Assembly: GCA_016700375.1 (NCBI GenBank)
Contig: CP065016.1
Location: forward strand, 570,001 to 602,000
Reading direction: 5' to 3'
Length of the DNA: 32,000 nt
From: Candidatus Saccharimonadota bacterium
Lineage (GTDB): Bacteria > Patescibacteriota > Saccharimonadia > Saccharimonadales > UBA4665
Below are positions 23,224 through 31,152 of this stretch, in pieces; within the stretch, counting starts at the first letter, position 1, and each line of letters begins with the position of its first letter. The notes beneath the pieces are model-generated. The model had not been told where the DNA came from. It searched no databases and saw only the letters and a list, made by a program, of their open reading frames with translations. Both the position numbers and the translations under genes were made by a program.

Positions 23224-23437
23224 TTTTTCTCCAAATAAAAATCACCTCTTTTAGCTGCCAGATCCCGGGTTATTCGGGAGGTACCATCTGGCTTCCAAAA
23301 GAAGTGATTCTTTTAGCACTTAGTTGCCGGTCTGACGGGCCGAACCGTTGGAATCTACTTTCTGGCTACGGCCAGATTTCTCTCCACTGCTTCGTGGTTG
23401 ATAGCCACTAATCCGGCAAAGCCGAAACGCATTTAAT
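23224..23437 (-). promoter_or_regulatory. T-box riboswitch leader, Ile specifier (AUC), copy 1
   Basis: Minus-strand RNA, 5' to 3':
- Short hairpin GUGG-CUAUCAA-CCAC (23408-23394). AUC followed by A sits in a 7-nt anticodon-loop-like loop.
- Stem II-like helix UCUGGC-CGUA-GCCAGA with a GAGAAA/AAGUAGA (S-turn-like) internal loop.
- Possible IIA/B pseudoknot.
- Stem III: CUAAAAG-AAUCACUU-CUUUUGG.
- Antiterminator: GCCAGA-[UGGUACC]-UCCCG-AAUAACC-CGGGA-UCUGGC (23292-23257). This is the A1 / 7-nt bulge / A2 layout and the conserved UGGNACC.
- CUAAAAGAGGUGAUU then pairs back to AAUCACUUCUUUU and is followed by UUUUUAUUU. Confidence 0.75.
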
Positions 23438-23443
23438 ACTGCA

Positions 23444-23473
23444 AGTATACGCCCTCCCACCCACCTAGCACAA
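23444..23473 (-). promoter_or_regulatory. Candidate promoter of operon 1
   Basis: The minus strand reads TTGTGC (23473-23468), 18 nt, TATACT (23449-23444). The spacer is G-tract rich (GGTGGGTGGGAGGG). Confidence 0.4.
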
Positions 23474-23497
23474 GCTCCACTCTTATCCAACGCAAAA

Positions 23498-24846
23498 TGA
23501 GCCTGAACCGCCTATCAGGTTCTAAAATACTATGAGCCTGAAATATCGACAGCTGGCATAGCATGGGAGGATGACTATTACTATGCAGCAACACACGCTA
23601 CCAACTATTGAAGAACTCAGACAGTTTGTCTCAGGCACTCAGTCACTTGACCTTACAATCGTACATAAGCAAGAGGCTTATGCCTGGTTACAGCAACTGG
23701 TCGTTCGTCTTGACTACCAGCACTTGGGCAAAAAAGACAAAGGCGTCGTTCGAGAATACGCCATAGCCGTCACGGGGTACAGCCGTGCCCAGGTGACTCG
23801 GCTTATTGGACAGTACCTGCGGACTGGCTGTATTGCGCTGGAGCCAGTGAACATGAGAAACCAGTTTGCACTGCGCTACACGCGTGAAGACATTGGGCTG
23901 CTAGCAGAGCTGGATGATGCCCATGATCGGCTCAGTGGCAAAGCGGCAAAAGTTCTAGCCCAACGAGCCTTTGTGACATTTGGCGATGCACGCTACGAAC
24001 GACTTAGCGCAATCTCCGTCAGCCACATATACAATCTACGTGGCACCGTAACATACCGTAACCAAAGCCATACGTTCACCAAAACGCAAGCAACAACAAT
24101 AGCTATTGGCGAGCGCCGCAAACCACGCCCGAACGGTCAACCTGGCTTCATCCGTATAGATACTGTCCACCAGGGAGATAAGGACAAAGAAAAGGGTGTG
24201 TACCACATCAATCTGGTTGATGAAGTTACCCAGTGGGAGGTGGTGGTCGCGGTCGAGAGAATCACTGAGCGTTACATGCTGCCAGCCCTCGAAGCAGCTT
24301 TGGTGCTGTTCCCATTTGTCATTGTAGAATTCCACGCCGACAATGGCTCGGAGTACATCAACAAACAAGTTGCTGCCCTCCTGAAAGCAATGCTCATCAA
24401 GCTCAGTAAGTCTCGAGCCTACCAAAGCGGAGACAATGGATTGGTTGAAACCAAGAATGGTAGCATTATCCGAAAAGCCCTAGGCTATGCGCATATACCC
24501 AGGGAATATGCTCCGGATATTAACAGCTGGTACTGTACGTGGTTTGTGCCCTACCTGAACTTCCACCGACCCTGCGGTTACCGCATAACGAGCGTTGACT
24601 CAAAGACGGGCAAGAGGACACATCGCTACCCAGTCAATGGGTACATGGTACCGTACGAGAAGCTGAAGTCATTGCCAGACGCCAAACAATACCTGAAGAC
24701 AGGCAGCAGTTTTGAGAAACTAGACGAAGTGGCGTATGCTGAAAGTGATACAGCTTGGGCGATAGCCATGAACAAAGCAAAAGACCAGTTGTTGAAGACA
24801 CTATATACAAAACGCTAGCTGTTTGTTTCTGGTAGCTTCAGGCTCA
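23498..24846 (+). mobile_element. IS element copy 1 (DDE/rve-type transposase, TG...CA ends)
   Basis: The inverted repeats AATGAGCCTGAA (23496-23507) and TTCAGGCTCATT (24837-24848) give 5'-TG...CA-3' termini. An extra internal ATGAGCCTGAA lies at 23532-23542. The element encloses a single intact transposase ORF. No flanking target-site duplication was recognised. The near-identical block shared with copy 2 is larger (23345-24868). Confidence 0.7.
23571..24818 (+). CDS. DDE transposase with integrase (rve) catalytic core and N-terminal HTH
   Basis: 415 aa. Candidate D-D-E triad: FIRIDTVHQG, EFHADNGSEYIN and DNGLVETKNGSIIRK, with a spacing typical of retroviral-integrase-type transposases. GGGAGG lies immediately upstream. 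The IS family is not assigned. Confidence 0.8.
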   Translation: MTITMQQHTLPTIEELRQFVSGTQSLDLTIVHKQEAYAWLQQLVVRLDYQHLGKKDKGVVREYAIAVTGYSRAQVTRLIGQYLRTGCIALEPVNMRNQFALRYTREDIGLLAELDDAHDRLSGKAAKVLAQRAFVTFGDARYERLSAISVSHIYNLRGTVTYRNQSHTFTKTQATTIAIGERRKPRPNGQPGFIRIDTVHQGDKDKEKGVYHINLVDEVTQWEVVVAVERITERYMLPALEAALVLFPFVIVEFHADNGSEYINKQVAALLKAMLIKLSKSRAYQSGDNGLVETKNGSIIRKALGYAHIPREYAPDINSWYCTWFVPYLNFHRPCGYRITSVDSKTGKRTHRYPVNGYMVPYEKLKSLPDAKQYLKTGSSFEKLDEVAYAESDTAWAIAMNKAKDQLLKTLYTKR

Positions 24847-24870
24847 TTCTTGGATTGGAATATACTGCCT

Positions 24871-29473: not shown

Positions 29474-29690
29474 ATGCTTCCCAAACAAAAATCACCTCTG
29501 TTAAATATCGGATCCCGGGTGAATTTGCGGGAGGTACCATCCGATTTCTAAAAGGGGTGATCTTTTAGCGCTTAGTTACGTGGTCTGACAGGCCGTTCCG
29601 TTGGAATCTACTTTCTGGCTACGGCCAGATTTCTCTCCACTGCTTCGTGGTTGATAGCCACTAATCCGGCAAAGCCGAAACGCATTTAAT
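29474..29690 (-). promoter_or_regulatory. T-box riboswitch leader, Ile specifier (AUC), copy 2
   Basis: The 5' half (specifier hairpin, specifier at 29655-29653, and stem II) is identical to copy 1. The 3' half is diverged but keeps the fold:
- Stem III: CUAAAAG-AUCACCC-CUUUUAG.
- Antiterminator: AUCGGA-[UGGUACC]-UCCCG-CAAAUUCACC-CGGGA-UCCGAU.
- Then ...ACAGAGGUGAUU followed by UUUUGUUU.

A1 is fully compensated relative to copy 1 (GCCAGA/UCUGGC becomes AUCGGA/UCCGAU). Confidence 0.75.
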
Positions 29691-29696
29691 ACTGCA

Positions 29697-29726
29697 AGTA
29701 TACGCCCTCCCACCCACCTAGCACAA
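29697..29726 (-). promoter_or_regulatory. Candidate promoter of operon 2 (identical to the operon 1 promoter)
   Basis: TTGTGC (29726-29721), 18 nt, TATACT (29702-29697), inside the block that is identical between the two units. Confidence 0.4.
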
Positions 29727-29750
29727 GCTCCACTCTTATCCAACGCAAAA

Positions 29751-31098
29751 TGAGCCTGAACCGCCTATCAGGTTCTAAAATACTATGAGCCTGAAATATC
29801 GACAGCTGGCATAGCATGGGAGGATGACTATTACTATGCAGCAACACACGCTACCAACTATTGAAGAACTCAGACAGTTTGTCTCAGGCACTCAGTCACT
29901 TGACCTTACAATCGTACATAAGCAAGAGGCTTATGCCTGGTTACAGCAACTGGTCGTTCGTCTTGACTACCAGCACTTGGGCAAAAAGACAAAGGCGTCG
30001 TTCGAGAATACGCCATAGCCGTCACGGGGTACAGCCGTGCCCAGGTGACTCGGCTTATTGGACAGTACCTGCGGACTGGCTGTATTGCGCTGGAGCCAGT
30101 GAACACGAGAAACCAGTTTGCACTGCGCTACACGCGTGAAGACATTGGGCTGCTAGCAGAGCTGGATGATGCCCATGATCGGCTCAGTGGCAAAGCGGCA
30201 AAAGTTCTAGCCCAACGAGCCTTTGTGACATTTGGCGATGCACGCTACGAACGACTTAGCGCAATCTCCGTCAGCCACATATACAATCTACGTGGCACCG
30301 TAACATACCGTAACCAAAGCCATACGTTCACCAAAACGCAAGCAACAACAATAGCTATTGGCGAGCGCCGCAAACCACGCCCGAACGGTCAACCTGGCTT
30401 CATCCGTATAGATACTGTCCACCAGGGAGATAAGGACAAAGAAAAGGGTGTGTACCACATCAATCTGGTTGATGAAGTTACCCAGTGGGAGGTGGTGGTC
30501 GCGGTCGAGAGAATCACTGAGCGTTACATGCTGCCAGCCCTCGAAGCAGCTTTGGTGCTGTTCCCATTTGTCATTGTAGAATTCCACGCCGACAATGGCT
30601 CGGAGTACATCAACAAACAAGTTGCTGCCCTCCTGAAAGCAATGCTCATCAAGCTCAGTAAGTCTCGAGCCTACCAAAGCGGAGACAATGGATTGGTTGA
30701 AACCAAGAATGGTAGCATTATCCGAAAAGCCCTAGGCTATGCGCATATACCCAGGGAATATGCTCCGGATATTAACAGCTGGTACTGTACGTGGTTTGTG
30801 CCCTACCTGAACTTCCACCGACCCTGCGGTTACCGCATAACGAGCGTTGACTCAAAGACGGGCAAGAGGACACATCGCTACCCAGTCAATGGGTACATGG
30901 TACCGTACGAGAAGCTGAAGTCATTGCCAGACGCCAAACAATACCTGAAGACAGGCAGCAGTTTTGAGAAACTAGACGAAGTGGCGTATGCTGAAAGTGA
31001 TACAGCTTGGGCGATAGCCATGAACAAAGCAAAAGACCAGTTGTTGAAGACACTATATACAAAACGCTAGCTGTTTGTTTCTGGTAGCTTCAGGCTCA
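29751..31098 (+). mobile_element. IS element copy 2 (same IS, same orientation as copy 1)
   Basis: IR-L lies at 29749-29760 and IR-R at 31089-31100. Across the 1.52-kb shared block (29598-31120 versus 23345-24868) I find two differences: one A missing from an A-run, and T to C at 30106. Confidence 0.7.
29824..31070 (+). pseudogene. Frameshifted copy of the IS transposase gene
   Basis: GGGCAAAAAAGAC (A6, 23730-23735) in copy 1 is GGGCAAAAAGAC (A5, 29983-29987) here. This splits the reading frame into 29824..30018 and 30045..31070. There is also a Met to Thr substitution (ATG to ACG at 30105-30107). Confidence 0.75.
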
Positions 31099-31152
31099 TT
31101 CTTGGATTGGAATATACTGCTCCCTTGTATGACTCAGGTCCACCTTGCCTCT

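Follow-up and report, generated by a model that had tools for sequence, protein, structure and literature searches.

Two alleles of one ileS locus joined in tandem across an insertion sequence in a Saccharimonadales assembly

The DNA described here (the window) is a 32,000-nt stretch of contig CP065016.1, positions 570,001-602,000, from assembly GCA_016700375.1 of a Candidatus Saccharimonadota bacterium placed in Saccharimonadales by GTDB; all coordinates below are positions in this window. It carries two operons for isoleucyl-tRNA synthetase (IleRS), operon 1 with ileS-1 and operon 2 with ileS-2, together with two directly oriented copies of an insertion sequence (IS): IS-A between the operons and IS-B upstream of operon 2. 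The two operons were probably joined in tandem by IS-driven unequal recombination or duplication, combined with allelic replacement by homologous recombination. IS-B is a plain transposition event. IS-A is a recombinant joint and not a simple insertion. Operon 1 is an imported allele whose recombination end points lie in the leader and near 17700. The structure of the locus is well resolved and is known from one assembly.

The first line of evidence is what relatives carry at the same position. A metagenome scan with IleRS-2 as query yielded 80 Saccharibacteria loci, and closer relatives were gathered through the exact 90-aa protein encoded upstream of the locus, through homologues of the Peptidase_C26 (C26) amidase of operon 2 and through the exact GNAT-1 protein of operon 1. 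Loci resembling operon 2 are labeled Type I and those resembling operon 1 Type II; L numbers denote individual loci or contigs. Nearly all of the 80 metagenome loci have one ileS between homologues of the gene at 31243 and rplU, and none of the 80 has two ileS genes or the IS of the window. Among the closer relatives, about 25 contigs hold a single IS-free operon, Type I or Type II, between the 90-aa gene and rplU. The exact 90-aa protein was found in 86 blocks of the collection, and in every case a leader and one ileS operon come after it.

The Type I arrangement RNR - 90-aa gene - leader - GNAT - CdiA_C - ileS - C26 - rplU is present without an IS in L175, L180, L183 and L184, and the same order minus GNAT and CdiA_C, also IS-free, in L176, L177 and L178. 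In L161, L162 and L163, whose C26 proteins are 94%, 88% and 70% identical to that of the window, an ileS of the ileS-2 type is followed by C26 and rplU, again with no IS, and the alignment to the window ends at 24867 and restarts at 18381. L177 likewise aligns as far as 24867. The exact GNAT-1 protein is encoded on seven contigs (L168-L174) with the Type II order RNR - 70%-identical small gene - leader - GNAT-1 - GDSL - ileS-1 - PaaX_M/Cas2-like open reading frame (ORF) - rplU - giant beta-helix protein. L164 is a Type II locus lacking GNAT-1. All eight of these have a single native operon 1 and no IS. L168 matches window positions 23359-17532 at 95.9% nucleotide identity, with protein identities of 100% for GNAT-1 and 99.5% for IleRS-1. 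The window is the only sequence found with both a Type I and a Type II operon. Since relatives carry either type singly, operons 1 and 2 are alternative occupants of one slot, and because IS-free relatives hold operon 2 in that slot, operon 2 is the native allele and the extra DNA is IS-A plus operon 1. An ancient in situ tandem duplication of ileS, as a neighbor-joining tree placing IleRS-1 as sister to IleRS-2 plus L110 might indicate, was rejected: relatives with 91-95% nucleotide identity have C26 beside rplU, and Type II strains have operon 1 alone.

The two IS copies lie in a near-identical direct repeat, 23345-24868 and 29598-31120, in which local alignment finds two differences over 1524 bp. 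This bears out the earlier note on this DNA, which had described two near-identical copies in the same orientation with two differences. One is a substitution, T at 23854 in copy A and C at 30106 in copy B, by which Met95 of the transposase becomes Thr. The other is a single-nucleotide indel in a homopolymer, which reads A6 at 23725-23730 in copy A but A5 in copy B. Through the A5 run the IS-B transposase is frameshifted and split into two ORFs, 29861-30139 and 30045-31070. Since the indel could be an error of sequencing, IS-B is not necessarily a pseudogene. To the left of 23345 the two regions remain collinear at about 75-80% identity, and to the right of 24868 and 31120 there is zero similarity between them. 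The repeat is thus composed of a 134-bp left flank (23345-23478), the IS itself and 2 chance bases on the right.

The termini of the IS were defined from identical copy pairs in other genomes (L031/L033, L061/L062 and L068/L072/L076) and from L001, a Saccharibacteria IS copy 73% identical to that of the window. Both sources give the pattern 5'-A(C/G)TCT..TCCAA...TTGGAA.A.ACT-3'. In IS-A the imperfect terminal inverted repeats match at about 24 of 31 positions. These ends lie some 18-19 nt outside those first proposed; the coordinates 23498-24846 and 29751-31098 given in the earlier note begin at the inner repeat ATGAGCCTGAA, about 19 bp inside the true termini. In a motif-based scan of 36 IS copies from relatives, 16 had perfect 5-bp flanking duplications, compared to 0 in an offset control. 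An alternative placing of the ends at 23480 and 24867, with CTC as a 3-bp duplication, was superseded by this family-wide end definition and the 5-bp test.

With these ends, IS-B is flanked by a perfect duplication of GCTCC. Its empty site is preserved in six relatives (L110, L176, L177, L178, L179 and L182), each with a single target copy, GGAGC on the operon strand. In the corresponding BLAST alignments one segment stops at 31119 and the next starts at 29731 (equivalent to 23478), the 5-nt overlap being the single target. The insertion point lies 5 bp upstream of the predicted -35 box of the native Type I operon.

IS-A has GCTCC on its left and GCCTT on its right and hence no target duplication. 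Its left flank, GCTCC plus 129 bp, is identical to the left flank of IS-B and consists of a Type I promoter and Stem I. On the right, the C26/IS-A junction reads …CCTGAAGGC/AGTATATTCC…, the slash marking the joint. In L161, L162 and L177 the native GCCTTC is followed directly by the rplU promoter TTTACA, and in L163 C26 likewise runs straight into the rplU promoter. As expected of a recombinant IS joint, IS-A lacks a duplication of its own and joins the flanks of two insertion contexts. The earlier statement that no target-site duplication could be found around either copy therefore holds for IS-A and fails for IS-B, and the preference expressed there for recombination over simple transposition is upheld at IS-A but not at IS-B, where the 5-bp duplication and the empty sites indicate transposition.

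Leader 1 switches from Type I to Type II sequence at about 23327-23355 and further left is identical to the 3' half of the L168 leader. In sliding comparisons, the window remains L168-like from 18381 to about 17700, below which it is closer to L175, with up to 100% identity. A Type II tract of about 5.6 kb thus sits within a Type I-like backbone. Duplication between the tandem units extends over the first 134 bp alone, and as wholes they are not copies of each other. Because unit 1 beyond these 134 bp is the Type II allele, a replacement step is needed in addition to the duplication.

A sequence of events can be proposed. A second IS copy would have inserted after C26, and unequal homologous recombination between that copy and IS-B on a sister or sibling chromosome would have produced IS-operon 2-IS-operon 2 or an equivalent arrangement. 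This step would yield the joint C26-IS-GCTCC-promoter-Stem I. The distal unit would then have been exchanged for DNA of a Type II strain through homologous recombination, the crossovers lying in the leader and close to where the giant gene starts, and this DNA would likely have entered by natural transformation. Such a history fits the natural competence reported for Saccharibacteria (PMC10187176; PMC10633639) and the evident mosaicism among the relatives. The tandem-duplication and replacement steps, taken in reverse order, would give the same product.

Several points count against this proposal. None of the relatives found has an IS after C26 with its own duplication, or the arrangement IS-operon 2-IS-operon 2, and in none is a Type I Stem I linked to leader 1 by itself. 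Either order of the steps fits the observations. Within the source genome, IS flanks were read for IS-A and IS-B only. The mosaicism of the relatives (rplU versus ileS alleles in L161 and L162) makes a "Type I/II backbone" a simplification, and the structure is drawn from a single assembly.

How do other explanations compare? It is unlikely that a tandem array of operon 2 and operon 1 existed first, received separate IS insertions and then underwent a gene conversion that copied the 134-bp flank of IS-B over the promoter and Stem I of operon 1. The left boundary of identity does resemble the end of a conversion tract, falling in a collinear homologous leader with no indel, and near-identical genomic IS copies would be good seeds for conversion. 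However, an IS-free tandem array is found in none of the relatives, IS-A lacks a duplication on either side, and its right end falls exactly at the native boundary between C26 and the rplU promoter, so that array junction and insertion would have to coincide. Distinctly unlikely as well is an assembly chimera, with a tandem array present in no cell. Here a Type I strain with an IS on both sides of operon 2 and a co-occurring strain with the recombinant leader and operon 1 behind the IS would have been joined through the IS repeat. Related strains of the two allele types are widely found together in metagenomes, the join would lie inside a 1.5-kb repeat, and one of the two differences is in a homopolymer, a typical sequencing error. 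Yet the sequence is a single contig of 1,256,494 bp, at whole-genome scale, in which the two copies were assembled as distinct sequences. The leader crossover shares only 8 exact bases between leader 2 of the window and Type II leaders, or 24 with L175, and so cannot have arisen as a k-mer join, and the Type I-like backbone resumes left of about 17700, a better fit to a short imported tract than to a switch of strain.

The earlier note had raised a composite-transposon-like unit, with operon 2 as the cargo, as one option. That IS-A and IS-B carried operon 2 to a position upstream of operon 1 and duplicated GCTCC is very improbable, and it is contradicted by the native, syntenic position of operon 2 in IS-free relatives (L175, L180, L183 and L184, in the same order, and also L176-L178, L110 and L161-L163). 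The outer termini, left for IS-A and right for IS-B, are intact, and contrary to the earlier report of no duplication around the composite, GCTCC does stand outside each of them (23474-23478 and 31119-31123). The left GCTCC, however, belongs to the 134-bp flank duplicated from IS-B. Both flanks are Type I, and their uninterrupted form (L110, L176-L179 and L182) leads to an operon-2-type ileS and not to operon 1. In native Type II loci the upstream gene is 70% identical, and promoter and Stem I differ. The IS-operon 2-IS unit was seen at no other locus, and contigs with matching flanks hold an operon-2-type ileS in place, without an IS. A one-ended or surrogate-end transposition, in which IS-A carried the adjacent operon 1 along and the two were inserted between C26 and rplU as one 6.5-kb unit (18382-24866), is scarcely credible. 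Compared with L161 and L162, the window does have a 6485-bp insertion bordered by a 5-6-nt repeat, CCCTTC (18376-18381) and GCCTTC, with one end at an exact IS terminus. The left repeat, GAAGGG-TTTACA when read on the operon strand, nevertheless belongs to native Type II loci: L168 and L164 have the identical sequence and are collinear with the window through rplU, and no IS-end-like sequence is found at 18382. Transposition with a GCCTT/CCCTT duplication was accordingly rejected.

Recombination between 1.5-kb direct repeats can delete or amplify the unit between them. The unit of IS plus operon 2, 6.25 kb by the 6252/6253-bp spacing of the copies, is therefore still deletable or amplifiable, as the earlier note had maintained from the direct repeats. 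Deletion would leave IS - promoter - Stem I - leader 1 - operon 1, that is, a completed allele replacement with ileS-1 alone.

The features of the locus are collected in Table 1.

Table 1. Features of the ileS locus and its surroundings (positions in the window; an empty cell means that no strand or remark applies).
Feature	Position	Strand	Remark
Conserved 90-aa gene, upstream edge of locus	31243-31515	-	terminator hairpin at about 31150-31195
IS-B right target duplication GCTCC	31119-31123		matches 29727-29731
IS-B	29732-31118	+	1387 bp; IS481-like rve/DDE; transposase frameshifted; Met95Thr
IS-B left target duplication GCTCC	29727-29731		matches 31119-31123
Native 134-bp copy, upstream of operon 2	29598-29731	-	
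Leader-2 3' half	29489-29597	-	operon 2
Operon 2 (native allele)	24871-29488	-	Pfam/NCBIfam matches; same gene order without IS in L175, L180, L183, L184
GNAT-2	28946-29488	-	operon 2
CdiA_C-domain protein	28534-28911	-	operon 2
ileS-2	25539-28436	-	operon 2
Peptidase_C26 amidase	24871-25542	-	operon 2
GCCTTC	24867-24872		last native bases downstream of C26
IS-A	23479-24866	+	1388 bp; intact 415-aa transposase 23571-24818; joint of operon 2 and operon 1
134-bp flank copy	23345-23478	-	identical to 29598-29731; Type I variant; GCTCC at 23474-23478
Imported Type II tract, about 5.6 kb	17700-23344	-	left limit approximate; L168 alignment
Leader-1 3' half	23224-23344	-	Type II tract
GNAT-1	22693-23223	-	operon 1
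GDSL esterase	22103-22696	-	operon 1
ileS-1	19221-22106	-	operon 1
PaaX_M/Cas2-like ORF, 159 aa	18465-18944	+	Type II tract
rplU (ribosomal protein L21)	18002-18319	-	Type II tract

The transposase has an rve domain (PF00665, 35.7 bits against a gathering score of 32.6) at residues 192-285 of a single 415-aa ORF. Its best NCBIfam model is IS481 (NF033577) at 53.8 bits, short of the curated family cutoff of 224. In keeping with an IS481-type element (ISfinder; NF033577), it combines a single-ORF rve/DDE transposase with imperfect terminal inverted repeats and short target duplications, here of 5 bp; unlike that family, it scores far below the NF033577 cutoff, with a 415-aa transposase, a length of about 1.39 kb and no evident NCTAGN-type target. 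Readings as an IS110/bridge-RNA element or a TnpB (IS605) element were ruled out by the rve/DDE transposase. Homologues of the transposase come overwhelmingly from Candidatus Saccharimonadales and other uncultured phyla, and many are on contigs of about 1.4 kb, as expected of a repeat collapsed by assemblers. The IS probably represents a separate group of wide distribution (Patescibacteria, Elusimicrobia, Acidobacteria and Chloroflexi). No record was returned by exact look-ups of the transposase, GNAT-2, C26 and CdiA_C proteins.

The search for further copies in the genome that the earlier note had called for was answered: the transposase cluster includes at least four ORF variants on the same 1,256,494-bp contig, all of them about 100% identical. 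Elsewhere on the contig lie no fewer than two more copies, with transposase ORFs of 417 aa (QQS69322.1) and 403 aa, each about 100% identical to that of IS-A save for changes at the ORF ends. Given four near-identical variants on one contig, the IS is multi-copy and was recently active in the source genome. Because all of its IS copies are near-identical, the near-identity of IS-A and IS-B is in itself unremarkable, and the shared 134-bp flank is the informative feature.

This flank holds GCTCC, a predicted promoter and a T-box Stem I with an Ile AUC specifier. The promoter, TTGTGC-18 nt-TATACT, has its -35 box at the reverse complement of 23468-23473 and its -10 box at that of 23444-23449. 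Its positions are conserved in both leader types when the leaders are aligned; a consensus promoter scan made no call there. Both window copies of the 134 bp match the leader variant of L175-L182 and not that of L168-L173. The T-box assigned in the earlier note falls below the Rfam gathering score: RF00230 gave no match at that score or at E<=1 over 8.5 kb, and a targeted 311-nt search reached 25.7 bits against 93 (E = 5e-4). On inspection, however, conservation among the relatives extends to GGCUAUCAACC (the Ile AUC specifier), AGUAGA, UGGUACC and a terminator hairpin with its U-run, and these motifs support a putative divergent T-box. The leader of L110, a close relative, lacks a 96-nt Stem I including the specifier (at 2354/2355, equivalent to window 23343-23438) and keeps the promoter, T-box sequence and terminator; either the deletion is natural or the assembly is in error. 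Among the relatives' loci, the 3' half of the leader co-varies with the gene that comes next. A sigma-70-like hybrid promoter match, TTGCCG-16 nt-TATATT at 24859-24886 on the minus strand, straddles the junction of C26 with IS-A and is directed into IS-A, antisense to its transposase; it is a consensus match only.

IleRS-2 and IleRS-1 have 77% protein identity, with about 73% nucleotide identity over ileS, and both have a DUF5915 C-terminal domain; GNAT-2 and GNAT-1 are 66% identical. The bracketed genes had been described as clearly diverged from paralogs in operon 1, and this is true of IleRS and GNAT, but the second gene of operon 1 encodes a GDSL esterase and is not a CdiA_C paralog. Peptidase_C26, IleRS and GNAT are as originally annotated, and the gene called nuclease-like has a Pfam CdiA_C domain (55 bits). 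A comparison of GC content, as had been suggested for the cassette, marked neither operon as foreign: GC and third-position GC (GC3) give no strong foreign signal in ileS-1 (52.2% and 60%) or ileS-2 (48.6% and 51%), and IS GC is 49.4%.

The CdiA_C protein (125 aa) has little beyond the toxin domain and lies between GNAT and ileS-2 under the Ile T-box. It is 97.6% identical in L175 and has neither a delivery domain nor an obvious immunity gene. A PDB sequence search with it found no relative. In the Type II tract, near-perfect palindromes of 43 nt flank the PaaX_M/Cas2-like ORF on either side (18420-18462 and 18946-18988); L164 and L168 show the same layout, and the palindromes could be operators or bidirectional terminators. 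On the minus strand at 6569-17608 lies the gene for a 3679-aa NosD/right-handed beta-helix repeat protein with many 66-72-nt tandem units, the N-terminal part of which diverges strongly between relatives.

Across the relatives, the slot is hypervariable in a fixed frame: RNR - 90-aa gene - T-box leader - accessory genes - ileS - C26 or PaaX/Cas2-like ORF - rplU. In the window and in L110, L164, L165 and L168-L184, the accessory genes are none, GNAT+CdiA_C, GNAT+GDSL, GDSL alone or a HAD hydrolase. rplU has two alleles of about 80% nucleotide identity that do not track the ileS allele (L161 and L162 compared with L175-L184). In L161 and L162, ileS-2 and C26 are joined to a window-like rplU, which indicates frequent recombination among lineages.

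The locus has an active IS and homologous recombination reshaping an essential-gene locus in a reduced genome of the candidate phyla radiation (CPR). Alleles that are mutually exclusive in relatives coexist in one chromosome, which suggests that alleles are often exchanged at the ileS slot of Saccharimonadales. The unit of mobility is also corrected: the operon between the IS copies is native and the acquired operon lies outside them. IS insertion, IS-IS recombination and allelic replacement are textbook, ordinary processes, and the interest of the locus is modest: a hypervariable T-box-controlled ileS slot in a genome caught with two alleles. Is the array a selected, reversible state, with two differently accessorized IleRS alleles each under its own Ile T-box? 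We regard this as a speculative and unlikely idea. If it were true, the sets GNAT+CdiA_C-domain protein+C26 and GNAT+GDSL+PaaX-like could cope with different IleRS-directed toxins or inhibitors, the IS repeats would be a switch that deletes or amplifies the native allele, and the Saccharimonadales ileS slot would be a hypervariable island of the defense or resistance type around an essential gene.

The arrangement has likenesses to several known systems. Paired ileS1 and ileS2 genes have been described in Bacilli (bioRxiv 10.1101/2022.02.09.479832), likewise with two IleRS genes per genome and T-box control involved; those belong to two deep IleRS clades, whereas the pair in the window are alleles of one locus. 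In composite transposons of the Tn10/Tn5 type, two IS copies also flank cargo with a regulated operon, but the copies in the window share one orientation instead of being inverted, the cargo occupies its native chromosomal position and there is no independent sign of movement. Another likeness is to classical IS-mediated tandem amplification, in which two direct IS copies bracket a segment, the joint IS has no duplication and carries the flank of the other copy, and RecA-type recombination can remove or multiply the unit. The locus differs from that system in that two IS copies alone remain here and the tandem units are not identical, the distal one being a 73%-identical allele of another lineage.

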